Below are positions 8,581 to 26,968 of a DNA stretch of 64,000 bases, one piece after another. The stretch comes from a virus (lineage: Duplodnaviria; Caudoviricetes), in the IMG/VR virus record IMGVR_UViG_3300034374_009547. One strand, written 5' to 3'. Each line of letters opens with the position of its first letter. The stretch's first letter is position 1. Under the pieces are notes generated by a model. That model saw only the letters and a program-made list of their open reading frames with translations, searched no databases and was not told the DNA's origin. The translations under genes were made by a program, and so were the position numbers.

Positions 8581-10136
8581 TGAAAACAAACCTAACTGAA
8601 ACACAAAAAGATTATGCAGTATTTTTACCTAGTATTAGCGGCTTTTATGGCACGTTTGTAGGTAAACAAAGATATGAAGATTATGTTGATCCTTCTCGTG
8701 TTCCAGCAGGTTTAGGCAATGTAGAAAGTCTTAATTTTTTAAATCCTAAAGACGGAGCATTCCATTACAAGTGGGCGCTCTATTCTGCTGGTCACGCAGA
8801 TTTAGATACGACTAAATTTGTTGATAAAGAAGATATGGTGCGTAACCGTGATAGAGATAATTCATGGTTGCTAGGCGACTCAGGTGGTTTCCAAATTGCT
8901 AAAGGGTTGTGGCCCGGTGACTGGACTAGCGAAACTTGTCCACATGCAAATAAAAAACGTGAGCTTGTTGTAAACTGGATGGAAGAATACATGGACTACG
9001 GAATGATGCTTGATATTCCTACATGGACCTTCCAAAGTGCAAAAGCAAGTAAAGCAACTAACATAAAAAGTTATGATGATGCTGTAAAAGCTACTCATAT
9101 TAATGCACGTTATTACATGAAACATAGACGTGGTAACTTTAAGGTATTAAACGTACTACAAGGCAGTAATCATACTAATGCCGATAGTTGGTATGAAGAA
9201 TTCAAAGGTTATTGTGATCCAAAACAATATCCAGATACACACTTTAATGGCTGGGCAATGGGTGGTCAAAACATGTGTGATGTTCATTTGATTTTACGCA
9301 GACTTGTACACATGATACACGATGGATTACTTGAACAAGGGCTGCATGATGTAATGCACTTCTTGGGCACAAGTAAACTAGAATGGGCTGTGTTACTTAC
9401 TGACATACAACGAGCTGTTCGCAAATATCATAATCCTAACTTTATGATTACATATGATTGTGCATCTCCTTTTCTTGCAACAGCAAACGGTCAAATTTAT
9501 CATAACATTAGATTAGATCACAAAGGCAAATGGAGTTATATTATGAGTCCAGGTGCTGACGCTTTGAAATATGCTAGTGATACTAGAAGTTTTATAGACG
9601 CAGTACTACAAGATGGCTTATTACCTACATTTGAAGAATCTCCTGTTAGTCAACACTGCAAAATGAATGATATTTGCATTTATGCTCCAGGCGATAAAAA
9701 CAAAGTTGGTACTATTAAAGTTGAAAAAGGTAAGCCAGAACTTGATAAACAAGGTAATCCTTTACTAGACGATAACGGAAATCCAATTATTATGCGTAAA
9801 GATAGCACAAGTTGGGATTCATTTAGTTATGCGCTACAAATGGGTCATAATGTTTGGATGCATATTGAAAGTACACAACGTGCAAACGAGCGTTATGATG
9901 CAGGAGAATATCCTTACATGATGGTATACGAACCAAGTATTAGACATGTGTTTAGAGATATTGTCAATGAAATCTTTGCACAAAAAGATCGTGAAAAAAG
10001 TCTTGCAGTTATTAACAAATATGGTGACGATAAATCGCTAAGTATTTGGACACACATTATTGGTACTAGATTGAAAGTTGGTAAGAAAACAATAACACCG
10101 GAAGCAAAAGCAGACGAATTATTTGATTGGGGTTGA
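8580..10136 (+). CDS. dpdA: tRNA-guanine transglycosylase-fold protein, putative DNA 7-deazaguanine transglycosylase (DpdA-like)
   Basis: TGT motifs in order: DSGGFQ, MMLDIP, GWAMGG, MHFLG, YDCASP. Co-located with queD, folE and queE. Confidence 0.8.
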   Translation: MKTNLTETQKDYAVFLPSISGFYGTFVGKQRYEDYVDPSRVPAGLGNVESLNFLNPKDGAFHYKWALYSAGHADLDTTKFVDKEDMVRNRDRDNSWLLGDSGGFQIAKGLWPGDWTSETCPHANKKRELVVNWMEEYMDYGMMLDIPTWTFQSAKASKATNIKSYDDAVKATHINARYYMKHRRGNFKVLNVLQGSNHTNADSWYEEFKGYCDPKQYPDTHFNGWAMGGQNMCDVHLILRRLVHMIHDGLLEQGLHDVMHFLGTSKLEWAVLLTDIQRAVRKYHNPNFMITYDCASPFLATANGQIYHNIRLDHKGKWSYIMSPGADALKYASDTRSFIDAVLQDGLLPTFEESPVSQHCKMNDICIYAPGDKNKVGTIKVEKGKPELDKQGNPLLDDNGNPIIMRKDSTSWDSFSYALQMGHNVWMHIESTQRANERYDAGEYPYMMVYEPSIRHVFRDIVNEIFAQKDREKSLAVINKYGDDKSLSIWTHIIGTRLKVGKKTITPEAKADELFDWG

Positions 10137-11487: not shown

Positions 11488-11676
11488 ATGACTATCTCTA
11501 ATCCGGTAGTAAATAAAATTTTTAACGATCTTGAGGAACTGCACGACTTCTGCAGAACTGAAGGTTATCCATTTAACCAAGCAGATTTGTATAAGAAAGA
11601 TGCTCGTGTATGGCAGGCATTTCAAAAATACAAAAATTGGGTCCGTGCTAGAAATCGCACCAAAGGACGCAAATAA
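11488..11676 (+). CDS. Small hypothetical protein
   Basis: 62 aa, AAGG RBS, TAATG coupling to the next gene. Confidence 0.7.
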   Translation: MTISNPVVNKIFNDLEELHDFCRTEGYPFNQADLYKKDARVWQAFQKYKNWVRARNRTKGRK

Positions 11677-12851
11677 TGCGTAAGCTGTTTTACATGGGCT
11701 TAGAGCCCTATGAAGGCAGGTACACATTACAACTTGAAGAATGGAGTAGGCGTGCGTTTCAACGCCGCTCCATTGATTGGGTTAATGTACCTGGTACAAC
11801 TATTGACAATACAAAAGCAATTCAAGTAGGCCAAGTGTTAGATGCACATGGCCGTTCCTACTTTGCAATGTCGCAAATGATGAACTTGGTGCAAATGATG
11901 CGTAACGGTGAAGTTACAGGCGAAGATGTAGTTTTCTTTGAAGATATGTTCCAGCCTGGTATGGAATCGCTTCCGTATATTATGGATCAGATTCCCACTG
12001 AGCAACGTCCACAGGTTTGGATTCGTTGTTTAGCACAAGCAGTTGATCCAGATGACTTTGTGCATGTTTGGGGCATGGGCAAGTGGATGAGTTTGTATGA
12101 AGAAATGTGCAACGAGTTTGTTACTGGCGTACTAGCAAGTAATGAAGAAATGGTTGCACACATGAAGATTGCAAACTGGAAGGCTCCTATCTACAATGTT
12201 TCAGGTCTTGCATTTGATAAAACAGAAGTTGCTCTACGTGTTGGCGAGATCAACACTTGGGAAAAGCGTGACAATCGTGTGGTATTTGCAGCACGTTTTG
12301 ATCAAGAAAAACAACCAGACTTTTATATGGATTTGATTGAAGAATGGTATGGTACACCAGGTACAGCAGACGTGGAGTTTTGCATTGTGCAAGGTGGCCC
12401 GCTACGCAGTAACAATCAAAAGTATATTGATCGTGCCCGCAAAATGGAAGAGCGTGGACAACTGGTAATTTATGAAAACTTGAAAAAGAATCATTACTAT
12501 GATATTGTAAATCGTAGTAAAGTTTTGTTCAATTGTGCTTTGCAGGATTGGACAAGCAATACGGTAAGCGAAGCAGATGCATTAGGATGCAATGTGTTGT
12601 TTCCAGCGTATCGCAGTTTTCCAGAAATCTTTGCTAATGATCATACACGCATGTATGTGCCTTGGAGTGTTGAAGATGCAATGAACAAGTTAACGCCATT
12701 ACTAAAAAGCGCACATAAAGACTTAGGTAAGATAAGCGATTGGACTAGTGCAACTATTGATCGTTATATTGATATTATGCAAGGTAACGGTGAACAATGG
12801 CGTAGAGATAGCAATCGTTATCGTGATTATGTTGCGGAGACAAAATATTGA
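11676..12851 (+). CDS. GT-B fold glycosyltransferase (GT4-like)
   Basis: FAARFDQEKQP and DWTSNTVSEADALGC (D/E-x7-E motif) in the C-terminal domain. Confidence 0.8.
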   Translation: MRKLFYMGLEPYEGRYTLQLEEWSRRAFQRRSIDWVNVPGTTIDNTKAIQVGQVLDAHGRSYFAMSQMMNLVQMMRNGEVTGEDVVFFEDMFQPGMESLPYIMDQIPTEQRPQVWIRCLAQAVDPDDFVHVWGMGKWMSLYEEMCNEFVTGVLASNEEMVAHMKIANWKAPIYNVSGLAFDKTEVALRVGEINTWEKRDNRVVFAARFDQEKQPDFYMDLIEEWYGTPGTADVEFCIVQGGPLRSNNQKYIDRARKMEERGQLVIYENLKKNHYYDIVNRSKVLFNCALQDWTSNTVSEADALGCNVLFPAYRSFPEIFANDHTRMYVPWSVEDAMNKLTPLLKSAHKDLGKISDWTSATIDRYIDIMQGNGEQWRRDSNRYRDYVAETKY

Positions 12852-13714
12852 GAGTATTGGTCACAGGTGCTACAGGTTATATTGGCAGTCATGTTTGTAA
12901 ACTACTAAAAGAGCATGGACATCACGTTACTGCTTGGGATATAAATATTCATGGTGAATACAATGACATCATGGCATATTGTGACCATTATTCTTCTTAT
13001 GATATAACTAAGTTTGTACATGGTGGCTTTGACGCCGTTGTACACTTAGCAGGACGCAGTGTAGTACCTGATAGTTTACGTGAACCTACAGAATATTATC
13101 GTGTAAACGTGATGGGTACTGCAAACTTGTTAGATCGTGTCGAAACACCACACATACTATTTGCAAGCACTAGTAGTGCTTGGGAAATGGCATCACCATA
13201 TGCACGTAGCAAAGTGGCAGCAGAAGATGTAATTAAGGAGAAAGCCAATGGATACACTATCTTTAGATTTTTTAACGTATCTGGTACTGACGGGCATAAT
13301 CGTCAACTGGGCGTTCCTACCCATCTTATTCGTGTTGCTGCTATGGTGGCTGCTGAAAAACTACCCAACATTAAGATCTTTGGTACGGACTATGATACTA
13401 GGGATGGTACTTGTATTCGTGATTATATTCATGTTGTTGATTTGGCTCGTGCCATTGTCAACGGAGTGGAACGAGGTCCAGCCAATACGGACTATGAGTG
13501 CCTTGGTAGCAACGTAGGTTATAGTGTACGAGAAGTAATCAGTACTATGGAGCAAGTTACTGGTAAAAAGTTAAATATCATTGAAGCAGAACGCAGAGAA
13601 GGCGATGCTGTTGCCAGTGTTGTAGACAACCTAAGTGATCTAGTTACACTGGAAAAAAGCATCGAAGATATGTGTTTGGATCAATACAAATTGGAAGTTG
13701 GTAAAAATGGATGA
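12848..13714 (+). CDS. galE: UDP-glucose 4-epimerase-like NAD-dependent epimerase
   Basis: GATGYIGS, VHLAG, YARSK (YxxxK), FRFFNV, DGTCIRDYIHVVDLA. TTG start. Confidence 0.9.
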   Translation: MRVLVTGATGYIGSHVCKLLKEHGHHVTAWDINIHGEYNDIMAYCDHYSSYDITKFVHGGFDAVVHLAGRSVVPDSLREPTEYYRVNVMGTANLLDRVETPHILFASTSSAWEMASPYARSKVAAEDVIKEKANGYTIFRFFNVSGTDGHNRQLGVPTHLIRVAAMVAAEKLPNIKIFGTDYDTRDGTCIRDYIHVVDLARAIVNGVERGPANTDYECLGSNVGYSVREVISTMEQVTGKKLNIIEAERREGDAVASVVDNLSDLVTLEKSIEDMCLDQYKLEVGKNG

Positions 13715-13937
13715 ATTAGTAGCACAAAGTAAAGTTATTATTGAACATTTAGATAATGGCGACTTGATGAGTTGTTATAGTGTTTTTGAAGCTAATATTA
13801 GAAATATTCTAGATGACTTAGATCAAGATACAAAACTGGTACAACTTTGGCAAACTCAAAGAGGATATGTCGATGATGAAGACTGGGCCTCAGTTATGGA
13901 AAATATTGAAAACATTCGAGCAGTTGTAAATGCGTGA
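13698..13937 (+). CDS. Hypothetical protein
   Basis: 79-aa ORF overlapping both neighbours. Start may be the downstream ATG. Confidence 0.6.
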   Translation: MVKMDELVAQSKVIIEHLDNGDLMSCYSVFEANIRNILDDLDQDTKLVQLWQTQRGYVDDEDWASVMENIENIRAVVNA

Positions 13938-14277
13938 TCACAACAACGATACTATTACAATTACAACTGATGATTTGGATAAATCAGGCGTAACAATTCA
14001 AGGTCATTATTATGGAAATACTATTGATATAGGCACTATATCAACAAGCACACTTGAATACAATGGAATTGATGATTTAGTTTCGCTTGATGATTTTTCG
14101 ATTACACTAAATGATCCTGTTGAGTTTGAAGATCGTATGCCCGATGTTGCCAAGATAGAAGACATGTGCAATGATTATCCAGCACTAGCAAAAGCATATG
14201 AAAATTTTAAAACTATGTATGCTATGGTGCATCAAGACTGGAAAGGTCGACAAGAGGATGACCCACTTCCATTTTAA
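13930..14277 (+). CDS. Hypothetical protein
   Basis: T/D-rich N-terminus and helical C-terminus (MCNDYPALAKAYENFK). Confidence 0.7.
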   Translation: MRDHNNDTITITTDDLDKSGVTIQGHYYGNTIDIGTISTSTLEYNGIDDLVSLDDFSITLNDPVEFEDRMPDVAKIEDMCNDYPALAKAYENFKTMYAMVHQDWKGRQEDDPLPF

Positions 14278-14758
14278 CATAGAACCTGTATGGAATATGG
14301 AACGCTATCGTGCGTTAGACTATAAACTAGACCATCATAAAGATACAAATTTAATACAAAAATATTTAGATGCAGGGCATAGTGCAGAGGCTATGACCCT
14401 GTATAACTATTTTGAACCAAATCCTATGCCACCAAGTATAGAATATATTTGCAGTTATTTTCCTACACTTAAAAACATTTCAATTGCAGTCAACCTATTT
14501 AAGCCAGGACAATATTTGCCTGTACATACAGATCTATATGGTGCATATAAAAAATATCATGGTTTGACAAACGAAACAATTTATAGATATATTGTTATGC
14601 TAGAAGATGGTGTAGAAGGACAAATGTCTGTAATTGGAAACAGAGTTTACACCATGTGGAAAGCAGGACAAATATACGGCTGGCAAGATGATGAAAAACA
14701 CACATTTTATAACTTGAGTACAAAGGATAGATATGCAGTCCAAATTACAGGCACATAA
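14258..14758 (+). CDS. 2OG-Fe(II) oxygenase-like protein
   Basis: PGQYLPVHTD (HxD) ... KHTFYN (distal His) ... RYAVQIT. Likely start ATG 14258 after AGAGG. Confidence 0.75.
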   Translation: MTHFHFNIEPVWNMERYRALDYKLDHHKDTNLIQKYLDAGHSAEAMTLYNYFEPNPMPPSIEYICSYFPTLKNISIAVNLFKPGQYLPVHTDLYGAYKKYHGLTNETIYRYIVMLEDGVEGQMSVIGNRVYTMWKAGQIYGWQDDEKHTFYNLSTKDRYAVQITGT

Positions 14759-16022
14759 CCGATACGACCAAGTTTTAGAAAAACTTTTCATTATATCAAT
14801 TAACAACAATACCAAGTTTGTAGATAAAGAATACAACTTATTACAAAGTATTGACCATGCTGTAGGTATACATCAAGTTTATACTCACGGATATTTAAAA
14901 ACTTTTAAAAAAAATTATATTGTAATACACGATATGGGAACTATAGACTATATTGAAAATTATTTTTTGAATAGTTATGAACGCAAATCATGTAACAATA
15001 AAGGTTTGTACATTTTTTTAACGGAACAAATATTACACACACATATTCCAGAACAAAAAATAATGTTAGATGGTGATAGCAATTTACCTAATATTTCTAT
15101 AGATTGGCAACAATCACAACACGATAAAATTTGGTCTCCTGAATTATCAAGTATTAATGAATTTGTAAAAAATAATCAATTAACAAATGTTTTTGTTTGT
15201 ATTAGTGCAGAAGATAAACATGGAATTTATGCGGGCAAATATAATTTTAACATACTTCGTAATGACGCTTATGTAAACGCAATAGCAACTTTTTTAGACA
15301 AAAATAAATCTCCAACCCAATTTTTTTCTAGTGATAAAATAGATACACATTTTTGGTGTGGTAATTGGGGATATAGACCGCACAGACACATTGTTACTGC
15401 TTTTGCTAGTAGCTTAGACACCTTGTATAGTTGGGGATATACAGATAGTAAACTTAATTTAGCAAATCATCTATGGTTTGATCCTAAAAAATTTAAGTAC
15501 AAAAAAGAATTACTACAATCGCTAAAACAATTACAACCAAACTCAATTGACATAGATACAGGGCAAACTGAAATCACAGGCACATTATTTGATGTAATGC
15601 TTAGACCCGAGTCTGAATACGAAGGTCCTGATTTAAAAAATTATTCAAGTAAAGAATTATTTTCAAATACATTTTGCAGTATTATTAACAGCAGTACATT
15701 TGGTGAACCATTTGCAGTATATGACGAAAAACCTTTAAATGCTATTATAAATTTTAGACCATTTATACTAGTTGGTCCAGCAGGCAGTTTAGAATTAATG
15801 AAAAAGGACGGTTTTAAAACATTTAGTGATTTTTGGAACGAAAGTTACGACAACGAATATAACCATCAAACAAGATTAGAAAAAATATTTGATTTGCTAT
15901 TAGAAATTGACTCTTGGAGTATTGAAAAATGTAAGCAAATGCACAAAGATATGTATAATATATTAATTCATAATTACAACAGAATAGGTAAAGATTTACA
16001 TGAAATGCGCAGCACTTTATAA
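14733..16022 (+). CDS. Putative glycosyltransferase-like protein
   Basis: C-terminal EKPLNAIINFRPFILVG..SLELMKKDGFKTFSDFWNESYD resembles a GT-B donor-binding end. Weak call. Confidence 0.45.
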   Translation: MQSKLQAHNRYDQVLEKLFIISINNNTKFVDKEYNLLQSIDHAVGIHQVYTHGYLKTFKKNYIVIHDMGTIDYIENYFLNSYERKSCNNKGLYIFLTEQILHTHIPEQKIMLDGDSNLPNISIDWQQSQHDKIWSPELSSINEFVKNNQLTNVFVCISAEDKHGIYAGKYNFNILRNDAYVNAIATFLDKNKSPTQFFSSDKIDTHFWCGNWGYRPHRHIVTAFASSLDTLYSWGYTDSKLNLANHLWFDPKKFKYKKELLQSLKQLQPNSIDIDTGQTEITGTLFDVMLRPESEYEGPDLKNYSSKELFSNTFCSIINSSTFGEPFAVYDEKPLNAIINFRPFILVGPAGSLELMKKDGFKTFSDFWNESYDNEYNHQTRLEKIFDLLLEIDSWSIEKCKQMHKDMYNILIHNYNRIGKDLHEMRSTL

Positions 16023-16926
16023 TCATACAAATATACGTGGTGGTAATCGTGTGTATCCTTGTTGTCGTTACAAGGAAAGTGTAATGCACTTTGATGGCAA
16101 TGTTGGTAAAATTATGCATAGTTATATGTATAATAAATTACGTGCAGATATGGAAGATGATTGGTTGCCGGGCTGTGGTAAATGCAAACACGAAGAAGAA
16201 CTAGGGGTAGAAAGTTTAAGACAACGGTTTAATTCTCGTTATCAAATGAGCAAACCTACACTGGATTATTTGGAAGTAGGGTTTGATAACATATGTGATT
16301 TAACTTGTGATGGTTGCTGGGAGGAATGGAGCAGCAGCTGGTGGGCTAAAAAGAATCCCGACCTGCCACACAAACAGGGAATTACCAGCACAGAAGAATT
16401 TACACATATACCCAACACTATAAATCGTGTGGTGTTTTTAGGTGGCGAACCACTTATGACAAATAGACACAGACGTTTTTTACAAACATTTGACAATTTA
16501 GAAAATCTATCTGTGGAATATTTTACAAATGGTATGCACAAATTACAAGAAGAAGATTACCAAGTTTTAAGCAAATGCAAACATGTACACTTTACAATCA
16601 GCATAGACGGTATAGGTGTTTTGAATGAACAGGTGCGTAGCGGTAGTGTTTGGAGCAGAGTGGTCAAAACATTAGATGAAATAGCAGATGTATTTGATTA
16701 TACAATACACAGCGTAGTGCATAAAAATAATTGGCACGGTTTACCAGAACTTGCAGAGTTTGCAAAAAAATATAAAAAATGGACAACAAATGTCTTGACA
16801 TTTCCTAAAGAACTGGATATAATAACACTAGAGCAGTGTGACAAAGCAAAACTAGAAAAAATATTGGATACATATGATATACCAAACAGGCAATATATTA
16901 AGGCACACTTACAAGGAGAAGCATGA
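16000..16926 (+). CDS. Radical SAM protein with N-terminal twitch-like module
   Basis: CDLTCDGC (CxxxCxxC), GGEP, N-terminal C...YPCC...CGKC. Confidence 0.88.
   Translation: MKCAALYNHTNIRGGNRVYPCCRYKESVMHFDGNVGKIMHSYMYNKLRADMEDDWLPGCGKCKHEEELGVESLRQRFNSRYQMSKPTLDYLEVGFDNICDLTCDGCWEEWSSSWWAKKNPDLPHKQGITSTEEFTHIPNTINRVVFLGGEPLMTNRHRRFLQTFDNLENLSVEYFTNGMHKLQEEDYQVLSKCKHVHFTISIDGIGVLNEQVRSGSVWSRVVKTLDEIADVFDYTIHSVVHKNNWHGLPELAEFAKKYKKWTTNVLTFPKELDIITLEQCDKAKLEKILDTYDIPNRQYIKAHLQGEA
16795..16823 (+). promoter_or_regulatory. Consensus sigma70 promoter inside the rSAM gene
   Basis: Perfect TTGACA-17 nt-TATAAT about 100 nt upstream of ORF 16923. Confidence 0.75.
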
Positions 16927-17537
16927 TGGACATGCGCAGTTATGAAAATTGGAGAGAACACGGTGCTGATGAAAGTAGTGTAGAAGAAGTAACTTGGAAT
17001 AATAACGATTTGCTTACACTACCTTGGGAAGCAACATATATGACAGACGAGATTCCAGAAGATAGTTCATGGGATACGTTTGCTACAAAAAATAAAAAAG
17101 CACTAGAAGCCATGTACAAACAATGGGGAGTACCTAAAGAAGGTAGTCTACATTATATGAGTATACGTCCAGAACTAACAAAAGGACTTGCTACACTTAT
17201 TGCTCCGTATGCACATATGAAGTTCAATTACAACTTCCTAAAACTAACACCAGGGTGTAGTTTAATGTGGCACTTTGATACATATGCTACATTTGTAAAG
17301 TTCAATAATATCGATGAAGCAGATGCACATCATGTTTGTAGGACCGTTGTGATGATGGATGACTGGGATAGAGGTCAAGTACTACAAGTAGGTGACGAAG
17401 TTTACACAGGCTGGAGTGCAGGAGATACATATACTTGGAAGGGTGATACTTGGCACGGTATGGCTAATTTTGGTCCTACTAATATTGTTATTGCTCAAAT
17501 AACATTCCTGGATGAAGATGACAAATATTCCCAATGA
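16923..17537 (+). CDS. 2OG-Fe(II) oxygenase-like protein
   Basis: LTPGCSLMWHFD (HxD) ... WHGMAN. Confidence 0.72.
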   Translation: MMDMRSYENWREHGADESSVEEVTWNNNDLLTLPWEATYMTDEIPEDSSWDTFATKNKKALEAMYKQWGVPKEGSLHYMSIRPELTKGLATLIAPYAHMKFNYNFLKLTPGCSLMWHFDTYATFVKFNNIDEADAHHVCRTVVMMDDWDRGQVLQVGDEVYTGWSAGDTYTWKGDTWHGMANFGPTNIVIAQITFLDEDDKYSQ

Positions 17538-18420
17538 TAAGCGTGATATGGATTTTGGCAGTGCTTTTGCTATACAAGATCCAGAAACAATGCGTTTATT
17601 AAGAAAACATTATAACTTTATTGATCTCAATAATGACAGCATTATTGATGAATTTCTGCATGAATACGATACTTGGATTAAATCAGGTACACTAAATGTG
17701 TTTACTGGATTAGAAGATTTTGGTTACAAATGTTATAGTAATGGTACTACAGAAGCATTTGATAAATTTTATATGCGCAATGCTAAACGTAGATTCCGAT
17801 GCTATAAAGGCGAATATATGTATCATAGATTAGCGTGGAGAGACAAGTTTGTTTGGGCATATATTGAAGACGAACCGCTTCACAATGCAGATGCAGTAGT
17901 TATTAGTTTACCATTTGCGGATACAGGTGACAAACACGACAAGTATCACGATCTAATGCGTGAATGTAGTGAACTAGGAATACCAGTATTAGTAGATTGT
18001 GCATATTACGGTGCTTGTAGGCATATACACATAGACTTAGCGTATCCTTGTATTACAGACGTTACGTTTAGTTTGAGCAAAACATTTCCAGTTGCTTACG
18101 CCCGTATAGGTATGCGATATACTAAAGTAGATGACGACGATACAATGTTTGTGTATCACAAAATAAACTACAATAACAAAATAGGTGCATTACTTGGTTT
18201 AGAATATTTTGACAACTTTTCACCCGATTACATACCAAACAAATATATTGACAAACAAGCAGATTTCTGTAATACTATAGGAGTTAGTATTAGTAAAACC
18301 GTGCTATTTGGTATTGATTACAATAATAAGTTTCCGCAATACAACAGAGGCGGACGTACAAATAGACTGAGTTTTCATAAACAATATATTAAAGGATTAG
18401 ATATTGCCGGTACAAAGTAA
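17512..18420 (+). CDS. Fold-type I PLP-dependent enzyme (aminotransferase/decarboxylase-like)
   Basis: NGTTEAF, LVDCAYYG (PLP Asp), SLSKTF (Schiff-base Lys), RIG. Start may be ATG a few codons in. Confidence 0.75.
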   Translation: MKMTNIPNDKRDMDFGSAFAIQDPETMRLLRKHYNFIDLNNDSIIDEFLHEYDTWIKSGTLNVFTGLEDFGYKCYSNGTTEAFDKFYMRNAKRRFRCYKGEYMYHRLAWRDKFVWAYIEDEPLHNADAVVISLPFADTGDKHDKYHDLMRECSELGIPVLVDCAYYGACRHIHIDLAYPCITDVTFSLSKTFPVAYARIGMRYTKVDDDDTMFVYHKINYNNKIGALLGLEYFDNFSPDYIPNKYIDKQADFCNTIGVSISKTVLFGIDYNNKFPQYNRGGRTNRLSFHKQYIKGLDIAGTK

Positions 18421-19462
18421 TAACGATTGGGATCCATTAGAAGAGATTATTATCGGCACAGCAGACAATTGTGTGCATCCTACTATGAATATTAGTACAC
18501 ATAGTTTTATATATGGTGGTGAACAATATGAAGATATCAAACACTTTAACGGGCAACCTATTGAACAATGGATTGTCGATGAAGCAAACGAAGATTTAGA
18601 TGGGTTAGAAAAGTGCTTAAAAGATTTAGGTGTTAAAACTAGACGTCCAAAAAGCATCGATCATAACCAAAAGTTTAGCACACCAGAATGGACTACTACA
18701 GGATGGTATACTTTCTGTCCAAGAGATTTGTTGTTGCCTTTAGACAATATGATTGTAGAATGTCCTAGCCCAATGCGAGCAAGATATTTTGAAACTAGAG
18801 CATACTATGACCATTTATATGAATGGATGAAAGAAGGTACACAATGGATTTGTGCGCCTAAACCTATTTTAACTGATGATAACTATCAATTGGAGGACCG
18901 TAGTGAAGCAACCCTTGTTAACAAAGAAATTATTTTTGATGCTCCTAATATCGTTCGTCTTGGTAGGGATCTTCTCTGCCAAGTTAGCAATAGTGGCAAC
19001 CAACTTGGTTTTGAATGGTTACGTACTATTTTAGAGCCAAAAGGCTATCGTATCCACGTAGCAGAAAAATATTATAGTTTTGCACACTTTGATAGCACCG
19101 TATTGCCACTGCGGCCTGGACTAGTGTTGTTTAATGCAGGACGCCTAAGCGAGGATTGGTATCCACCTATTTTTAAAGACTGGGACAAGATTTGGGTAGG
19201 TGAAGAAGATCTACACGTTCCGCCAGCAAACACAGGTGTTGCTCCTTGCTCACCTTATATTGGATTAAACTTTTTGAGTGTTAATCCAGAACTTGTTATT
19301 GTTGATGAAAAGCAAGAAGCACTTAGACGTATACTAGGCAAACATGGTATTGATACAATAGGCCTTCCAATGCGTCAAGCACGTAGCATGAGCGGAGGGT
19401 TTCATTGTGCTACACTAGACACTAAGCGCAAAGGCAGTTTGGAGGATTATTTTGCAACATAG
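18404..19462 (+). CDS. Amidinotransferase (glycine/inosamine-phosphate amidinotransferase family)
   Basis: WDPLEEIIIG, CPRD, FDAPN, HFDST, GGFHC (catalytic Cys). TTG start. Confidence 0.9.
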   Translation: MPVQSNNDWDPLEEIIIGTADNCVHPTMNISTHSFIYGGEQYEDIKHFNGQPIEQWIVDEANEDLDGLEKCLKDLGVKTRRPKSIDHNQKFSTPEWTTTGWYTFCPRDLLLPLDNMIVECPSPMRARYFETRAYYDHLYEWMKEGTQWICAPKPILTDDNYQLEDRSEATLVNKEIIFDAPNIVRLGRDLLCQVSNSGNQLGFEWLRTILEPKGYRIHVAEKYYSFAHFDSTVLPLRPGLVLFNAGRLSEDWYPPIFKDWDKIWVGEEDLHVPPANTGVAPCSPYIGLNFLSVNPELVIVDEKQEALRRILGKHGIDTIGLPMRQARSMSGGFHCATLDTKRKGSLEDYFAT

Positions 19463-19673
19463 TATAGAACAATGGATTGAACGTATAAATGCAATGAAAG
19501 ATATGTGTATTCAAGCACATAGATTGCGTAATCAATACAGCGAACAAGTTGAAGAAACATACAACTATGCACAAGTAAAAGATATACTAGAGCAAGTGCA
19601 ATCAATGGCCGCCGGTATTGCAAATGAAAAAATAACCGAAATTAAAACAGAAATGGATGAATGGAAAAAATGA
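19452..19673 (+). CDS. Hypothetical protein
   Basis: 73-aa helical ORF, TTG start after GGAGGA. Confidence 0.6.
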   Translation: MQHSIEQWIERINAMKDMCIQAHRLRNQYSEQVEETYNYAQVKDILEQVQSMAAGIANEKITEIKTEMDEWKK

Positions 19674-20224
19674 AACGCAAACATTATACTTGGGACGATG
19701 TACATAAATGTGCTCACAAACTAGCACTGGAAATGTACAAAACTGGATTCAAACCAGATTATATTGTAGGACTCAACAGAGGCGGTCTGCCTATCAGTGT
19801 TGTGTTAAGCCATTTATTAGACTGCGACCATTATGCGCTAGATGTACGGTTACGTGATAACAAAGGAGAAACTGGACCTGAATCTAACTGCTGGATGGCA
19901 GAAGATGCGTTTGGGTATGTATCTCAAATTGATAGAGATGATGTTTGGAGTAAATCTACTAGCGATACTGCTAAGAAAAAGAAAATTTTAATTGTAGATG
20001 ATATCAACGATACTGGTGCTACATTTAAATGGATTAAAGAAGATTGGCAAGCAGGTTGTTTACCAGATAGTCCAAACTGGGATACCATTTGGAATCAAAA
20101 TGTTCGCTTTGCTGTAATGTGTGAAAAAACACATACCGAGTTTGATGGGGTTGACTATGTATGGCAAACCATAGATACAGGTGAAGAAGATACATGGATT
20201 GTGTTTCCATGGGAATATGATTAA
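19661..20224 (+). CDS. Type I purine phosphoribosyltransferase (Gpt/Hpt-like)
   Basis: VGLNRGGLP, PRPP-binding loop ILIVDDINDTGAT, WIVFPWE. Confidence 0.88.
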   Translation: MEKMKRKHYTWDDVHKCAHKLALEMYKTGFKPDYIVGLNRGGLPISVVLSHLLDCDHYALDVRLRDNKGETGPESNCWMAEDAFGYVSQIDRDDVWSKSTSDTAKKKKILIVDDINDTGATFKWIKEDWQAGCLPDSPNWDTIWNQNVRFAVMCEKTHTEFDGVDYVWQTIDTGEEDTWIVFPWEYD

Positions 20225-20233
20225 GGAGATAAC

Positions 20234-20362
20234 ATGAGTTGTACATGTGGAAGATCGCCAACAGGACGTTGTGTAGGTTGGCATAGTTTAACAGAGGAGC
20301 AATACCTTGAGAAAAAAGCCGAATATGAAAAAAGACAAGCACTAAAGGAGAAAAAGGAATGA
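20234..20362 (+). CDS. 42-aa CDGSH-like Fe-S/zinc-finger miniprotein, not in the ORF track
   Basis: MSCTCGRSPTGRCVGWHSLTEEQYLEKKAEYEKRQALKEKKE*. AAGGAG RBS, ATGA overlap downstream. Confidence 0.7.
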   Translation: MSCTCGRSPTGRCVGWHSLTEEQYLEKKAEYEKRQALKEKKE

Positions 20363-20562
20363 AAGAACAACTAGTAAAAGCAGCACGTATGCACGCCGAA
20401 GGTGAGCTCGAAAGAGCAAAAACAAATATTATGGTTTACATGAACCAAAGTGTAGGTATTGGCGAACACAGCGATATCGTCGAAGCAATTCAAGAAGAAC
20501 TTGATAAAATGGCAGCGGCAGAAGATCGTATCGAAATGCTGAGAAAATATTTTGAGGGTTAA
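20359..20562 (+). CDS. Small conserved phage hypothetical protein
   Basis: 67 aa with VGIGEHSDIVEAI. AAGGAG RBS. Confidence 0.7.
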   Translation: MKEQLVKAARMHAEGELERAKTNIMVYMNQSVGIGEHSDIVEAIQEELDKMAAAEDRIEMLRKYFEG

Positions 20563-20579
20563 AAACCATAGTTAACCTA

Positions 20580-20608
20580 TTGACAAATAATCTAAATAAT
20601 GTTACTAT
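20580..20608 (+). promoter_or_regulatory. sigma70-type promoter for folE-queE
   Basis: TTGACA-17 nt-TACTAT. Confidence 0.75.
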
Positions 20609-20613
20609 AAACA

Positions 20614-20640
20614 ATAGACATCCTCGTCTATAACTCGGAG
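20614..20640 (+). promoter_or_regulatory. 5' leader hairpin of folE (candidate cis-regulatory RNA)
   Basis: ATAGAC-ATCCTC-GTCTAT 6-bp stem at the predicted transcript start, followed by GGAG RBS. Confidence 0.4.
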
Positions 20641-20646
20641 AATAAA

Positions 20647-21378
20647 ATGACAGAAGAAGTAAAAGGACTTAATACTGACAATGTTGAGCCTGTAAAGATT
20701 AGTCAAGTAGTACGTGAAAGACTACAAAAAAACGGTGTTCGTTTTTATGCAAATGACAATATTAGTGAACATATTAGTGAATTTGAATTACAAGAGATTC
20801 AAAACGAATTAAAATACAAGTTCCAAGATGTACTAGATACACTTATTATTGATACAGAAAACGATCCAAACAGCATGGATACTGCAAATCGTTTGGCGAA
20901 GATGTATATTCATGAATTGATGCGTGGAAGGTATTATCCGCAGCCTAATGCAACTGCATTTCCTAATCATACAGATGATGCGTATGATGGTATGCTTGTT
21001 GTGCGTAGCGAACTTAAAAGTGTTTGTTCGCATCACCATCAACCAGTTACAGGTGTAGCATATATTGGTATTCTTGCTGCTGATAAACTTATTGGATTAA
21101 GCAAGTATACACGTATTGCACAATGGTGTGCTAGACGTGGCACACTACAAGAAGAACTTGCAATGGATATCTGTAAAGAAATAATGAAAGTTACAGGTGC
21201 TAAAGATTGTGGTGTTTATATTCAAGCAACACACGGTTGCTGTGAAAATAGAGGCATTATGGCACATAGTAGTTTAACACAAACAAGTGTACTAAAAGGT
21301 GCGTTTAAAACTGATCCTGGTACAAAGAAAGAATTTTTTGATAACATTAAATTACAACAGGAGTTTGCACCGCGATGA
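20647..21378 (+). CDS. folE: GTP cyclohydrolase I
   Basis: SVCSHHHQP, GLSKYTRI, QEEL, HGCCENRG. Confidence 0.95.
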   Translation: MTEEVKGLNTDNVEPVKISQVVRERLQKNGVRFYANDNISEHISEFELQEIQNELKYKFQDVLDTLIIDTENDPNSMDTANRLAKMYIHELMRGRYYPQPNATAFPNHTDDAYDGMLVVRSELKSVCSHHHQPVTGVAYIGILAADKLIGLSKYTRIAQWCARRGTLQEELAMDICKEIMKVTGAKDCGVYIQATHGCCENRGIMAHSSLTQTSVLKGAFKTDPGTKKEFFDNIKLQQEFAPR

Positions 21379-22271
21379 AACTAAGATATAGTGAAGCATT
21401 TTATAGTGTGCAAGGCGAAGGCAAATTTGTAGGAGTACCTAGTGTATTCCTACGCACCTTTGGTTGTAACTTTCGTTGTATGAATTTTGGTGTGGATAAA
21501 AGTGTTGGCAGTCGTTGGGAGCAACACGCAAAAGGTCAACGCTACAACGCAGAAGTAAAACAACTGCTAGATGACGGTGTTCATGAAACTACAAAAGAGT
21601 TTAATGATTTGCCTATTGTGCATACAGGCTGCGATACATATGCAAGTATCTATCCAGAATTTAAACACTTCAATATGCTTAAAAGCGTAGATGAAGTTGT
21701 AGAACACTTGTTGAGTTTGTTGCCGGAAGGCAAATGGACTATGGATAATGGACAAGATGTTCATCTTATCCTTACAGGCGGCGAGCCATTACTTGCTTGG
21801 CAACGGTTGTATGTCGAGCTGTTTGAACACCCAGGTATGCAGGATCTAAAAAATGTCACAATCGAAACCAACACTACACAGCATCTACACGATGACTTCT
21901 ACAACTATCTCAATGGTCACGAAAGAATTCAGCTCACTTTTAGCTGTTCTCCCAAACTATCCGTATCGGGCGAGTCTTGGGATGATGCTATTAAGCCTGA
22001 TGTTGCTCGTGAGTATTCCCTTGTTGATGGCAGCAATATGTATTTTAAGTTTGTTGTTGCTGATCAGAGTGATGTTGACGAAGTTGGTAGAGCAGTTGAT
22101 ACCTATCGTAAAGCGGGCGTGGATGTTCCTGTATATCTCATGCCGCTTGGGGGTAGGTCGGAAGAATACACTCTCAACGTACAAGAGGTGGCGAACCTCT
22201 GTATGGAACGAGGGTGGAGGTTCTCGCCAAGACTCCACATTAGCCTATTCGGAAATGCCTGGGGCACTTAA
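21375..22271 (+). CDS. queE: 7-carboxy-7-deazaguanine synthase (radical SAM)
   Basis: EAFYSVQGEG..VG.PSVFLRTFGCNFRC...GCDT, TGGEP, IETN, SPKL, YLMP, RLH. Confidence 0.92.
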   Translation: MKLRYSEAFYSVQGEGKFVGVPSVFLRTFGCNFRCMNFGVDKSVGSRWEQHAKGQRYNAEVKQLLDDGVHETTKEFNDLPIVHTGCDTYASIYPEFKHFNMLKSVDEVVEHLLSLLPEGKWTMDNGQDVHLILTGGEPLLAWQRLYVELFEHPGMQDLKNVTIETNTTQHLHDDFYNYLNGHERIQLTFSCSPKLSVSGESWDDAIKPDVAREYSLVDGSNMYFKFVVADQSDVDEVGRAVDTYRKAGVDVPVYLMPLGGRSEEYTLNVQEVANLCMERGWRFSPRLHISLFGNAWGT

Positions 22272-23314: not shown

Positions 23315-23505
23315 AAGTTGCAAAAAATATGATTCTGATAAAGGGCAATCATAGTATGGCGTTTAGTGTAAGACGCCGCAAGGAGTTGGTTGAAATTGAC
23401 TTTTACAAAGACACTTACAAATATCTTACACAAAAATTATCTCTTGACGAAGGCTCTGTTGTATACTATAATGCTATTGAACTAGGCTACAAAGAGGCAT
23501 TCTAA
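23311..23505 (+). CDS. Small hypothetical protein
   Basis: 64 aa, GAGG RBS, coupled to both neighbours. Confidence 0.55.
   Translation: MKVAKNMILIKGNHSMAFSVRRRKELVEIDFYKDTYKYLTQKLSLDEGSVVYYNAIELGYKEAF
23444..23472 (+). promoter_or_regulatory. sigma70-type promoter for the flap nuclease
   Basis: TTGACG-17 nt-TATAAT. Confidence 0.7.
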
Positions 23506-24482
23506 TGACATACATTCTTATTGACACTGCTAACACATTTTTCCGTGCTCGACACGTTGTACGTGGAGACATTGATACTAAAGTTGGCATGGCAATGCAC
23601 ATCACCCTTAACAGCATTAAGAAAGCATGGCAGGACTTCAACGGTTCGCACGTTGTTTTCTGCTTAGAAGGACGCAGTTGGCGTAAGGACTTTTATGAGC
23701 CTTACAAGCGCAATCGCAAAGAAGCACGTGATGCACTTACTCCACGTGAAGCAGAAGAAGATAAAGTGTTTTGGGAAATCTTTGATGAGTTTAAAGAGTT
23801 TGTTACAGACAAGACTAACTGCACCGTTTTGCATAATCCTGTACTAGAAGCAGATGATTTGATTGCAGGTTGGATACAAAATCATCCTAACGATGACCAT
23901 GTTATTATTAGTACAGATGGCGACTTTGCACAATTAATTGCACCCAATGTACGTCAATACAACGGTGTTAGTAATACTACTATTACACATGAAGGTTACT
24001 TTGATGACAAAGGTTCACCTGTATTAGATAAGAAAACTAAAGAACCTAAAGAAGCACCTAATCCAGCATTTATGTTGTTTGAGAAGTGTATGCGTGGTGA
24101 CACTAGTGACAATGTGTTTAGTGCATATCCTGGTGTTCGTAAAAAAGGCACAAAGAACAAAGTAGGATTGCAAGAAGCATTTGCAGATAAACAAACAAAA
24201 GGTTATAACTGGAACAATATGATGCTACAGCGTTGGGTAGATCACAAAGGTGTAGAACATCGTGTGCTGGATGATTATACACGCAATGTTACCTTGTGTG
24301 ACTTGACTGCACAGCCCGAACACATTAGACAAGAAATAAATAACACTATCCAATCAGCAGATAGCAAGAATGTATCACAAGTTGGTATGAGACTAATGAA
24401 GTTTTGTGCCCGTTGGGATCTTCAGCGTATTGCAGATAATGCTGCACAATATGCAGAACCATTACAAGCGAGGTATGAATGA
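23505..24482 (+). CDS. rnh: 5'-3' exonuclease/flap endonuclease (T4 RNase H-like)
   Basis: ILIDTAN, YKRNR, EADDLIA, STDGDFAQL, GDTSDNV. Confidence 0.9.
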   Translation: MTYILIDTANTFFRARHVVRGDIDTKVGMAMHITLNSIKKAWQDFNGSHVVFCLEGRSWRKDFYEPYKRNRKEARDALTPREAEEDKVFWEIFDEFKEFVTDKTNCTVLHNPVLEADDLIAGWIQNHPNDDHVIISTDGDFAQLIAPNVRQYNGVSNTTITHEGYFDDKGSPVLDKKTKEPKEAPNPAFMLFEKCMRGDTSDNVFSAYPGVRKKGTKNKVGLQEAFADKQTKGYNWNNMMLQRWVDHKGVEHRVLDDYTRNVTLCDLTAQPEHIRQEINNTIQSADSKNVSQVGMRLMKFCARWDLQRIADNAAQYAEPLQARYE

Positions 24483-24952
24483 CAATAAAAGCAAAACCAG
24501 TTTTAGCAAATAAATTTTGGATTGTTGAAGAAGAAGGTGTGCGAATTGGTACACTTAGTAAAGAGGACGACGGCTTTGTTATTTCTAGCAAAGGTAAAGT
24601 AGATGTTTACAAATCAGAACACCAATTAAAAAAACAATTTGGTAAAAATTTCCTAATTGCTAACATTACAAATACCAACTCAAAACAAGAAAAAGAAGTT
24701 CACGGGTATCCTACTAGAAGTATTCCATATAATAGTATGTTTGACATTCAAAGAAAACTACCTCTTTTTACTAAAAGTGAAAAATCTAAGTCGGTATATT
24801 GTGCCGGTTATTATCTAGTAAAGTTTAATGTAAACTGGCTGAAAAGTTTTTGTCCTAAATTAATTACTATCGAACGTAATGACTTTATGGGTCCTTTTAA
24901 AACTGAATTAGAAATGAAAGTAGCATTAGCTAATGCCAACCGATCCAATTAA
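24479..24952 (+). CDS. Hypothetical protein
   Basis: 157-aa ORF, ATGA overlap. Confidence 0.72.
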   Translation: MTIKAKPVLANKFWIVEEEGVRIGTLSKEDDGFVISSKGKVDVYKSEHQLKKQFGKNFLIANITNTNSKQEKEVHGYPTRSIPYNSMFDIQRKLPLFTKSEKSKSVYCAGYYLVKFNVNWLKSFCPKLITIERNDFMGPFKTELEMKVALANANRSN

Positions 24953-25178
24953 TACTAGCAGTATTCAGCAATTTTTTCAGCAGGTCAAGCAAGCAGAAGC
25001 AAGCAGAGCTAGAGAAGTTAAGTTAGATATTGTACAAGCTAAAAATCTTGCCTTTACTTTAGGAGAGGTAATGGCAAGATTAAATGGTGATTTAGAAAAA
25101 ATTATATCAGAACAAATAGAAAAACTTAATCAAGATCAAATAATAGAAATTAGTATGGACTCTGGGGAGTGGAAATAA
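24933..25178 (+). CDS. Hypothetical protein
   Basis: 81-aa helical ORF. Confidence 0.65.
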   Translation: MPTDPINTSSIQQFFQQVKQAEASRAREVKLDIVQAKNLAFTLGEVMARLNGDLEKIISEQIEKLNQDQIIEISMDSGEWK

Positions 25179-25200
25179 ACTCCCTGTTAACTAAAAAGAG

Positions 25201-25240
25201 ATAAATATATGCGTAGTTTATATTAAAGGATACGCATATG
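25201..25240 (+). promoter_or_regulatory. Putative late promoter (ATAAATA) plus start-codon-sequestering hairpin
   Basis: ATAAATA at 25201-25207. Inverted repeat ATATGCGTA (25207-25215)/TACGCATAT (25231-25239) encloses the AAGGA RBS and covers ATG 25238. Confidence 0.6.
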
Positions 25241-25519
25241 AGCAGACCAAAGCCTACTATTAAATTAGAATATACTAACCCTGCAACTTACAAATGTGAG
25301 CAAGTTTTAGATGCTGAAGCAATTTGGGCAGTTTTCTACCAAGATAAACCTTTTAATCTAAAAAGCTCAAATTCTTTAACAAACTATCCTGGTCCTAAGT
25401 ATAAGAAAACAAGTTTTTCTAATCCTGGACATGCACATAATCTTGCAAAAAAACTTAATAGCATGTTTAAAACAGAAGATTTTAGTGTTTATAAACTAAC
25501 TTCTGGTGAAAAAATCTAA
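25238..25519 (+). CDS. Conserved phage hypothetical protein
   Basis: 93 aa with GPKYKKTSFSNPGHA. AAGGA RBS. Confidence 0.78.
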   Translation: MSRPKPTIKLEYTNPATYKCEQVLDAEAIWAVFYQDKPFNLKSSNSLTNYPGPKYKKTSFSNPGHAHNLAKKLNSMFKTEDFSVYKLTSGEKI

Positions 25520-25905
25520 TGTCAAACAAACTAGTTTTTACAAAGTTGTTTTTACGTGAATTAGGACAAAGCACTAACGAACAAAATGTAAAAGCAATGA
25601 TGCCTTTATGGTGGTATAATACTAGAGACAAAAAAGTGGGTGGACTTAGACTTACACAAGAAGGCTTTGATGTAGTGCAAAAAATAGGATTAGCAACTTA
25701 TGATATACCATATCCTAGAGAAATGCCATTAACTACACAAGTAATTATTTTTTTAGATCAATTTATTGATTGTCCATATTACCTAACAAATAGAAGTATT
25801 ACGGTTACAAACGAACGTAAAGCAGTTGAACTTGGTTTGTTTAGTGGAGATTTGCGCAAATATGGATTAACAAAAGCAATGTCAAGATCAAAGGTTGACA
25901 AATAA
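25519..25905 (+). CDS. Hypothetical protein
   Basis: 128-aa ORF, TAATG coupling. Confidence 0.72.
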   Translation: MSNKLVFTKLFLRELGQSTNEQNVKAMMPLWWYNTRDKKVGGLRLTQEGFDVVQKIGLATYDIPYPREMPLTTQVIIFLDQFIDCPYYLTNRSITVTNERKAVELGLFSGDLRKYGLTKAMSRSKVDK

Positions 25906-25923
25906 ATTATTTCACGTTAATAT
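25895..25923 (+). promoter_or_regulatory. sigma70-type early promoter
   Basis: AAGG-TTGACA-17 nt-TAATAT. Confidence 0.7.
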
Positions 25924-25954
25924 AATTTTATAGGGTAACAAAAAGGGCATCACT

Positions 25955-26488
25955 ATGCAAATCGATTATATAACTACAATGACTAAAGTAGGTCAACTTG
26001 TACGTAGAGAAGGGCATGATAAAAAACTTGCTTTAATTCCTGATGCAAACATTTCAAAAGAACTTCTTAAAGACAATCGAGGCAGAGTATACGCTATTGT
26101 AGTTGATGGGGAAATACACAAGCTAGGTGGATCACAAGCAAAAGGTGGTATTAAATCAACGTTTGATGCCTATTGTGGTGGTTATGCATTTGGTATGAGT
26201 GCAAGAACATATGCTGTATGGAATTATCTCACACAAAAAATAAATCAAGGTAAGTGTGTTGAAATTTATTGTGTATGGGCAGACGTTGTTACGGTTCCAG
26301 TACCCACAATGACAGGTACAGAAATGCAAACTATTCCTGTTGATTTTCATGCAATTGAGAAAAACTTTGTTGATGAGTATGTCGCAAAAGAAGGAAAGTA
26401 CCCTGAATTAAATATGCAAGAATCTGGTCGTAAATGGGAAGATACAGGCTTATTAGAAGGCTGGCCCGGTATGGGAAAAAAGTTTTAA
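25955..26488 (+). CDS. GIY-YIG-family endonuclease (T4 EndoII/Hpy188I-like)
   Basis: GRVYAIVVDGEIHKLGGS (degenerate GIY...YIG hairpin), later AIEK (metal Glu) and PELN. Confidence 0.55.
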   Translation: MQIDYITTMTKVGQLVRREGHDKKLALIPDANISKELLKDNRGRVYAIVVDGEIHKLGGSQAKGGIKSTFDAYCGGYAFGMSARTYAVWNYLTQKINQGKCVEIYCVWADVVTVPVPTMTGTEMQTIPVDFHAIEKNFVDEYVAKEGKYPELNMQESGRKWEDTGLLEGWPGMGKKF

Positions 26489-26495
26489 AAAAAGG

Positions 26496-26524
26496 TTGAC
26501 AATCGATAAAACATATATTATATT
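26496..26524 (+). promoter_or_regulatory. sigma70-type early promoter
   Basis: AAAAAAGG-TTGACA-17 nt-TATATT, with an A-tract upstream. Confidence 0.75.
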
Positions 26525-26560
26525 ATATATATAGGGCAACAAGACAAAGAGGGTTACAAA

Positions 26561-26947: not shown

Positions 26948-26968
26948 CTTACAAATTGTTGCTAATAT
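26940..26968 (+). promoter_or_regulatory. sigma70-type early promoter
   Basis: GAGG-TTGACT-17 nt-TAATAT. Confidence 0.65.

Follow-up and report, generated by a model that had tools for sequence, protein, structure and literature searches.

The window analysed here is a 64,000-nucleotide stretch of viral DNA (IMG/VR record IMGVR_UViG_3300034374_009547; Duplodnaviria, Caudoviricetes). The element in question is a run of four overlapping genes at 16000-19462, which encode a radical S-adenosylmethionine (SAM) protein (rSAM308), an oxygenase-fold protein (A204), a pyridoxal 5'-phosphate (PLP) enzyme (B302), and an amidinotransferase (C352). The source of the window is a large uncultured aquatic phage, T4-like or jumbo. 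Its family B DNA polymerase (2588-5251) showed 42-51% identity to those of the jumbo phages Sinorhizobium phage Phosso and Agrobacterium phage Atu_ph07 and of Rak2-like coliphages, and related IMG/VR contigs were up to 170-340 kb long. The G+C content of the window was 28-40%, and the cassette region was densely coding on the + strand. A DNA-level search of this region against 50,697 phage records gave no match. The last three genes (the trio) were located between the DNA polymerase and an exonuclease / clamp-loader-like ATPase (23505-28085). The features of the cassette are as follows.

16000-16926, + strand: rSAM308, radical-SAM protein with an N-terminal twitch domain (NF033640 and PF04055), directly 5' of the trio.
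16795-16823, + strand: sigma-70-type promoter sequence TTGACA-17-TATAAT, 12/12 match, hexamers conserved in 10 related loci.
16913-16918, + strand: Shine-Dalgarno sequence AAGGAG, 4 nt before the A204 ATG, kept in the DNA alignment of relatives.
16923-17537, + strand: A204 (204 aa), orphan protein with a predicted double-stranded beta-helix (2-oxoglutarate (2OG)/Fe(II)-oxygenase) fold and an HxD...H triad.
17512-18420, + strand: B302 (302 aa), divergent fold-type I PLP enzyme of class I/II type, HisC/CobD-like.
18404-19462, + strand: C352 (352 aa, TTG start), StrB1-type L-arginine:amine amidinotransferase by homology.

Consecutive genes overlapped by 4 nt (rSAM308/A204), 26 nt (A204/B302), and 17 nt (B302/C352). 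The original prediction had described the trio as three overlapping genes for a 2OG oxygenase, a PLP enzyme, and an amidinotransferase. The overlaps were confirmed, and the enzyme classes were correct: C352 by homology to StrB1, B302 by fold and motifs, and A204 by fold and the HxD...H triad. A Pfam scan at E 0.01 detected no match for A204, B302, or C352. The upstream rSAM308 passed the NF033640 N_Twi_rSAM cut-off (172.5 bits against 170), matched PF04055 with an E-value of 2e-9, and contained the CxxxCxxC motif as CDLTCDGC.

On homology, C352 is an amidinotransferase of the AGAT/StrB1 type (EC 2.1.4.x). A phmmer search against the PDB gave StrB1 (1bwd) at E 1.5e-86 over residues 4-349, followed by HsvA, SxtG, and AGAT with E-values of 2.6e-64, 2.1e-59, and 5.6e-56, respectively. 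The alignment with StrB1 was nearly gapless from end to end, and in both this and its length C352 was StrB1-like, unlike the longer glycine amidinotransferases. Asp108, His228, Asp230, and Cys335 (FHCATLD) were invariant in 32 phage and bacterial homologues and aligned with the StrB1 motifs; they correspond to the Cys-His-Asp catalytic core and the guanidinium-binding Asp. C352 also matched phrog_25854 (E 7e-34).

The AlphaFold model of B302 had a predicted local distance difference test (pLDDT) score of 86.5. Foldseek placed HisC (E 1e-11) and CobD (E 9e-10) near the model, and the top 50 matches were all fold-type I PLP enzymes. Template modelling (TM) scores were 0.59-0.64 with HisC and 0.59-0.67 over the HisC/CobD range. 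Lys190 (SLSK), Ser189, Asp162/Tyr165 (D-x-x-Y), Arg198, and the C-terminal Arg285 were invariant in 29 sequences. A sequence search of B302 against the PDB gave chance-level matches only. The Pfam family PF00155 matched B302 with 12.6 bits, below its cut-off of 19.7, and 20 of the 29 relatives matched weakly, whereas the fused relative P0216 passed with 25.6 bits; B302 therefore lies on a divergent branch missed by the Pfam model. An exhaustive profile search gave 838 cluster representatives of the family at E <=0.001. B302 is presumed to be an aminotransferase, or possibly a decarboxylase. Natural fusions of B302-type proteins in metagenomes (P0214, P0215, P0235, P0216, and P0192) showed the arrangements radical-SAM-B, B-radical-SAM, PhyH-type 2OG dioxygenase-B, and B-methyltransferase (class I). 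The PhyH domain of P0216 was considered as a member of the A204 family, but no homology beyond the WHFD motif was found and it is an analogous partner; thus, two different oxygenase families partner with B.

A204 had no Pfam, NCBIfam, or PHROG match and no sequence match in the PDB above chance. A carbonic-anhydrase match in the PDB covered a 30-residue stretch only and was rejected as chance-level. A homologue search returned only unnamed metagenomic proteins, none with a Pfam domain. The predicted model had a pLDDT of 88.7. Foldseek alone could not separate A204 from small cupins, but exhaustive VIA-align did: rows 1-33 were all 2OG oxygenases (Z 10.9-8.5, with 140-160 residues aligned), including prolyl, aspartyl, and proline hydroxylases. 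In alignment A1 (24 sequences, including the paralogue o186), His117, Asp119, and His178 (HxD...H), Arg140, and Lys107 were invariant, and the triad was kept in an alphaproteobacterial homologue. By strand position alone, the invariant Arg140 and Lys107 are candidate anchors for the 2OG C5-carboxylate. The model therefore points to a 2OG/Fe(II)-oxygenase fold, for which 2OG dependence is plausible. PF05118 was matched by 1 of the 24 members of alignment A1 (E 0.12) and was present on about 20% of the members of the nearest named Atlas clusters. The paralogue o186 showed 25% identity to A204 and retained the H, D, H, R, and Q positions in alignment A1; its homologue in locus L075 carries PF05118. 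The window thus contains two diverged paralogues of one orphan cupin-oxygenase family 2 kb apart.

Conservation was surveyed by scanning IMG/VR with C352, which gave 60 loci, and then seeking the neighbouring genes there by tblastn. The order rSAM-A-B-C was kept in most of the 60 loci, down to 60% identity for C and about 45% for A. Adjacency of B and C was the most constant feature, seen in nearly all of the 60 loci. In some groups (L012-L017) B-C-rSAM occurred without A, and in others (L052, L053, and L058) B-C alone was present. As judged from this gene order, rSAM-A-B-C is a conserved enzymatic cassette.

In L012-L017 and L073, C352 homologues of 87-89% identity occurred together with far less similar partners, a B homologue with 34% and a radical-SAM protein with 38-40% identity, so the amidinotransferase gene seems, from these identities, to move between otherwise diverged cassettes. 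A PTPS (QueD) gene and a gene for a protein of >3,100 aa were also located in the vicinity.

The partner genes were found in bacteria as well. In alphaproteobacterial metagenome-assembled genomes (MAGs; Acetobacteraceae, Methylocystis, and uncultured members), B homologues of 38-42% identity adjoined true A204 homologues, with an hhalign probability of 98.4% (E 4.6e-15) for the Methylocystis protein. No amidinotransferase or radical-SAM gene was found near the A-B pairs of the alphaproteobacterial MAGs and single-amplified genomes (L076-L080). The Methylocystis pair (L077, 4269-5974) stood beside a GT4 glycosyltransferase gene and a ferredoxin-reductase-like gene. In Bdellovibrionales MAGs, B was located among several N-twitch radical-SAM genes, and one MAG also had an adjoining amidinotransferase of 25% identity. 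Rather than a closed trio, the genes form a network in which four families are partners: the N-twitch radical-SAM proteins, the cupin oxygenases, the PLP enzymes of type B, and the amidinotransferases of the StrB1 type. Co-occurrence of the trio, which the original prediction had proposed to check, was thus found in many viral contigs, but not as a closed unit, since the radical-SAM gene travels along, B-C is the most constant pair, and A-B occurs without C.

The perfect TTGACA-17-TATAAT reported inside the upstream radical-SAM gene was verified at 16795-16823 (12/12). It is located within the 3' end of the rSAM308 open reading frame (ORF), about 100 nt before the ATG at 16923, and from its position the transcription start is predicted near 16830. 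Nine close relatives and L024 have the site with a 12/12 match at an identical offset (11 sequences with the window); for L024, identity to the window's radical-SAM protein is only 50%. In the DNA alignment of related loci both hexamers were invariant, while the spacer, the flanking, and the nearby synonymous positions varied. Because the hexamers are invariant while neighbouring bases drift, 16795-16823 is probably a real internal promoter.

Weak sigma-70-like sites in an 18-kb region were at chance level (72 against 70.9 in shuffles). Sites with <=1 mismatch, in contrast, numbered 13 in the whole window against 1.8 expected (about 7-fold), and 0 of 100 shuffles reached 13. These near-consensus sites span 6021-62829, and most are on the coding strand directly 5' of gene starts. 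Besides the site at 16795-16823, two others were free of mismatches.

7800-7828, + strand: TTGACA-17-TATAAT.
38312-38340, - strand: TTGACA-17-TATAAT.

This pattern suggests that the phage often uses host-type consensus promoters and that much of the region would be transcribed by unmodified host RNA polymerase. No terminator-like site was found on the + strand between the upstream genes and the trio, so the promoter supplements read-through and does not define an isolated unit. The earlier description of a separately promoted trio therefore holds for the conserved promoter; as an isolated unit the trio does not stand, the site being one of 13 of its kind. A second strong promoter-like site (TTTACA-17-TATAAT, 15995-16023) overlaps the annotated ATG (16000) of the radical-SAM ORF; if this site is used, the start of the radical-SAM protein must be a downstream codon.

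The cassette is part of a tailoring island with sugar-nucleotide, glycosyltransferase, and radical-SAM genes, and its surroundings also contain orphan genes and a group of deazapurine-type genes.

6347-7060: phosphomannomutase, eukaryotic-type (PF03332), upstream of the cassette, in the early region of the phage.
7057-7803: UDP-Glc/GDP-Man dehydrogenase (248 aa), upstream, likewise in the early region; truncated-looking, with the N-terminal and central domains only.
11676-12851: glycosyltransferase, weakly GT1/GT4-like (22.5 bits, below the Pfam cut-off).
12848-13714: NAD epimerase/dehydratase, upstream of the cassette.
14198-14758, + strand: o186, the A204 paralogue, of the same cupin family.
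14733-16022, + strand: o429, viral orphan protein, recurrent cassette neighbour.
19452-19673, + strand: o73, small ORF that overlaps C352, probably on the same transcript.
19661-20224, + strand: PRT187, phosphoribosyltransferase (PRT), XPRT-like (PF00156, E 2e-12), probably co-transcribed.
19661-22271: run of PRT (XPRT-like), FolE, and QueE-like radical-SAM genes, downstream of C352.

Copies of o429 at 26-48% identity adjoined rSAM-A-B-C in several groups of loci. No Pfam or PDB match was found for o429, and the Atlas gave viral orphan clusters only; a weak Atlas lead to a GT10-like protein (0.79) was at chance level and was rejected. The o73 protein, present in close relatives only at 49-75% identity, had no family match. 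PRT187 accompanied FolE/QueE in groups of loci and was missing from many trio-bearing loci. The QueE-like gene encodes 298 aa, longer than usual. The PRT-FolE-QueE layout at 19661-22271 recalls nucleotide-level deazapurine pathways with a ToyH-like step. Neither QueC nor QueD was detected in the window, and the PTPS/QueD protein of L073 had no tblastn match there. For 8580-10136, a DpdA-like identity was considered, but neither Pfam nor a PDB sequence search supported it.

In other phage loci the cassette had comparable company. In locus L075 a homologous cassette was accompanied by the sugar enzymes seen in the window and by a tail-fibre-like Mtd_N gene, and in L074 the cassette was inside a radical-SAM run with a TauD oxygenase. 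In the viral-looking L070 (1-20507; also L071 and L072), nine radical-SAM genes stood in a row around a B-radical-SAM fusion and were preceded by genes for ClpS, ClpP, NifU, the iron permease FTR1, and an Fe-S assembly protein, which gives the impression that the element provides its own iron-sulfur supply.

Taken together with the upstream N-twitch radical-SAM gene, the cassette is read here as a route for amine formation followed by arginine-dependent guanidinylation of a sugar-like precursor, and we consider this reading somewhat favoured. Amine formation followed by StrB1-type amidination is also the most economical reading. The enzyme classes, catalytic residues, gene linkage, and promoter conservation are directly supported; the step order, substrate class, and donor we infer. 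In the first step, the radical-SAM enzyme and/or A204 would oxidise the precursor (a sugar, a cyclitol, or a sugar-linked compound) at one carbon. B302 would then install or expose a primary amine at the oxidised position. In the third step, C352 would move the amidino group of L-arginine to this amine via a Cys335 thiouronium, giving a guanidino group and ornithine. The product would most likely be a guanidino-bearing sugar unit, because the island holds a phosphomannomutase, a UDP-Glc/GDP-Man dehydrogenase, a GT4-like glycosyltransferase, and an NAD epimerase/dehydratase; phage glycosyltransferases could subsequently attach it to a target. Transcription would combine read-through from upstream promoters with the conserved internal sigma-70-type promoter at 16795-16823.

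Several observations weigh against this pathway. The sugar genes flanking the trio are neighbours only. B302 resembles amino-acid and phospho-amine enzymes (HisC, CobD, C-S lyases, and MppP), not DegT-type sugar aminotransferases, so that the amine-bearing substrate may not be a sugar and B302 may, on its fold, be a decarboxylase or lyase. A204 lacks an RxS or Lys motif and has no Arg/Lys 9-10 residues after His178. Because A-B occurs without C in Alphaproteobacteria, amidination is an add-on and not the purpose of the A-B pair. StrB1's own substrate is phosphorylated, and no kinase was seen near the cassette. The literature on such genes consists of annotation only, with no substrate, product, or activity reported for any member of the module.

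DNA hypermodification is the alternative that survives best, and we regard it as unlikely. Here the cassette would be expressed early from the sigma-70 promoters in the replication module and would place a guanidino group onto phage DNA, for example on a base-linked sugar, adding positive charge and blocking restriction in the way of the putrescinyl or aminoethoxy groups on thymidine in other phages. The location agrees with this, as the genes lie between the DNA polymerase and the exonuclease/clamp-loader-like ATPase, beside PRT, FolE, and QueE, and the replication block has many consensus host-type promoters. Radical-SAM and PLP enzymes are said to have been described by Lee et al. in 2018 (PNAS) as part of thymidine hypermodification pathways, which counts in its favour. 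However, elsewhere the cassette belongs to radical-SAM islands that adjoin tail-fibre-like genes (L074, and L075 with Mtd_N), its neighbourhood yielded no dU/dC hydroxymethylase or base kinase, and the module is also present on presumed bacterial chromosomes (Bdellovibrionales and Alphaproteobacteria). The narrower outcome, in which the phage's own DNA carries either a guanidinylated side chain or a base-linked guanidino-sugar, we hold to be slightly less probable again; such a modification would be the first natural one of DNA to carry a guanidinium group.

An arginine-derived non-proteinogenic amino acid is a real though improbable alternative, to which we give a small chance. A204 would hydroxylate arginine or a related amino acid, B302 would carry out a PLP-dependent elimination, cyclisation, or oxidation (VioC/VioD-, MppP-like), and C352 would supply or recycle the guanidino amino acid; the free small molecule would act on the host or on competitors. 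The structural matches lean this way: the nearest folds to B302 are amino-acid enzymes, including the L-Arg oxidase MppP (Foldseek ranks 36 and 50), and the best matches of A204 are amino-acid/peptide hydroxylases (prolyl and aspartyl). The A-B pair stands alone in Alphaproteobacteria, and the authors of the S-SCSM2R genome labelled the corresponding genes of that phage 'antibiotic synthesis genes' (PMC12801897). Yet the nearest enzyme to C352 is StrB1, which acts on an aminocyclitol, and not an amino-acid amidinotransferase. The module is accompanied by glycosyltransferases, sugar-nucleotide enzymes, and radical-SAM arrays, and no peptide synthetase, ligase, or exporter was found nearby.

An amidinated 7-deazaguanine, for which the FolE/QueE/PRT neighbours would supply a preQ1-type base or nucleotide and C352 would guanidinylate its aminomethyl group, is improbable to a high degree. 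PRT187, FolE, and the QueE-like gene are within 2 kb downstream, two groups of loci retain this synteny, and L073 has a PTPS (QueD) gene at a distance of 5 kb upstream of its B-C pair. CP220, another amidinotransferase carrier, makes a 7-deazaguanine DNA base, which also counts for this reading. The distribution of the genes speaks against it. In the complete S-SCSM2R genome a cupin-amidinotransferase pair is present in the absence of FolE and of a true QueE, and >25 loci with the cassette have no FolE/QueE/PRT within 8 kb. In CP220 and in the 91%-complete 340-kb contig G004, FolE/QueE are about 25 kb or more from the amidinotransferase. Related contigs gave marginal PP-loop matches for QueC and none for QueF/TGT; these viral records are fragments, in which absence proves little. 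The reading also leaves no role for the 2OG oxygenase or the HisC-like PLP enzyme, and the archaeosine amidine is made by enzyme families (ArcS, Gat-QueC, and QueF-L) unrelated to AGAT/StrB1. The adjacency of PRT-FolE-QueE to the trio would more simply reflect conserved genome order. The link to an amidinated deazaguanine or archaeosine, which the original prediction had raised, is therefore not supported, in view of S-SCSM2R and of the many cassette loci without these genes.

That the promoter match is a coding by-product and the three genes are mere neighbours in a long read-through operon with no common pathway is very hard to credit: the total of promoter-like sites equals the shuffle count, and the hexamers fall on Leu-Thr and Asp-Ile-Ile codons of the radical-SAM gene, so that amino-acid conservation contributes to their invariance, but against this stand the 12/12 match in 11 sequences (one with a 50%-identical radical-SAM protein) with varying synonymous and spacer positions, the 7-fold enrichment of near-consensus sites, and the gene order, the fusions, and the adjacent gene pairs seen in distant phages and bacteria, which argue for a shared function.

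To our knowledge, guanidino groups on sugars or cyclitols come almost only from aminoglycoside-type antibiotics. If guanidinylation of a sugar-like precursor is the function of the cassette, a streptidine-like guanidinylation logic would have been rebuilt in phages from unrelated enzymes, namely an N-twitch radical-SAM protein, an orphan with an iron-oxygenase fold, a PLP family that has no model in Pfam (838 representatives), and an amidinotransferase of the StrB1 type. The cassette is widespread in uncultured aquatic giant phages, and related modules occur in isolated phages of cyanobacteria and Campylobacter as well as in Bdellovibrio-like bacteria. Identification of the product would assign a function to several large orphan families together, explain the radical-SAM islands of these phages, and show whether it is glycans, virion proteins, or DNA, if any, to which phages add a permanently cationic group. 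Since the culturable phages CP220/CPt10 and S-SCSM2R carry the module, it is testable.

Among known enzymes, HisC (histidinol-phosphate aminotransferase) and CobD (L-threonine-O-3-phosphate decarboxylase) share with B302 the fold and the motifs GT-x-E, D-x-x-Y, S-x-S-K...R-x-G, and the C-terminal Arg. B302 differs in its low identity (12-16%), its shorter length (about 300 aa), and the replacement of Asn-Pro-Thr-Gly by Ala-Asp-Thr-Gly. A204 resembled 2OG oxygenases of the AspH/prolyl-hydroxylase type, with Z-scores of 9.8-10.9 to PHD, P4H, AspH, and proline 3-hydroxylase; the HxD...H motif is shared, and paralogous viral clusters of A204 carry PF05118. However, its identity to solved structures was about 9-13%, and RxS/Lys after the distal His is missing.

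BtrN, a radical-SAM dehydrogenase that works with an aminotransferase step in 2-deoxystreptamine biosynthesis, has a C-terminal twitch domain. The cassette likewise has a twitch radical-SAM gene directly before the PLP enzyme gene, and rSAM-B fusions exist, an arrangement that would fit radical alcohol-to-ketone oxidation followed by transamination. The twitch domain of rSAM308 is N-terminal (NF033640), and the likeness is one of gene order and domain type. Archaeosine-type amidation (ArcS, Gat-QueC, and QueF-L) differs from the cassette, as C352 belongs to the unrelated AGAT/StrB1 family and showed no obligate co-occurrence with preQ0 genes.

Two isolated phage groups carry related modules. 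In the Synechococcus phage S-SCSM2R, described in 2025, ORF305, 306, and 309 were the genes given the antibiotic-synthesis label, and a second amidinotransferase, ORF266, was found in the virion proteome (PMC12801897). The amidinotransferase of its module (ORF301-310) showed 36% identity to C352, and directly upstream is a '2OG-Fe(II) oxygenase' of 44% identity to o186, which is of the o186 type and not of the A204 type. A DegT-type (AHBA_syn-like) aminotransferase fragment is present instead of a B302-type enzyme. Radical-SAM genes together with a 'possible glycine amidinotransferase' had already been pointed out in the Campylobacter phages CP220/CPt10 (Timms et al. 2010; PMC2853527). The CP220 protein was 30% identical to C352, and the phage had no detectable A or B homologue. 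In both S-SCSM2R and CP220 the amidinotransferase gene is flanked by radical-SAM and glycosyltransferase genes, as in the setting of the cassette.

The closest parallel is the streptidine branch of streptomycin biosynthesis in Streptomyces griseus, with StrB1 (PDB 1BWD, L-arginine:inosamine-phosphate amidinotransferase). C352 is alike over the whole length (352 aa against 348 aa), with the same Cys-His-Asp core and guanidinium-binding Asp, and the proposed reading of the cassette shares the logic of oxidation, amination, and amidination. In contrast to the streptidine pathway, the ORFs in 11676-22271 gave no DegT/StsC aminotransferase, NAD-dependent inositol dehydrogenase, or inosamine kinase in Pfam, and the window has no inositol gene either; the amine presumably comes from a HisC/CobD-like PLP enzyme together with the radical-SAM protein and a cupin oxygenase, and the carrier is a phage. 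The streptidine-style order invoked by the original prediction is therefore retained for an amine followed by StrB1-type amidination, but as an analogy only, because B302 is HisC/CobD-like and not of the DegT/StsC type. By this analogy, the cassette works like the streptidine pathway and is not a member of it.

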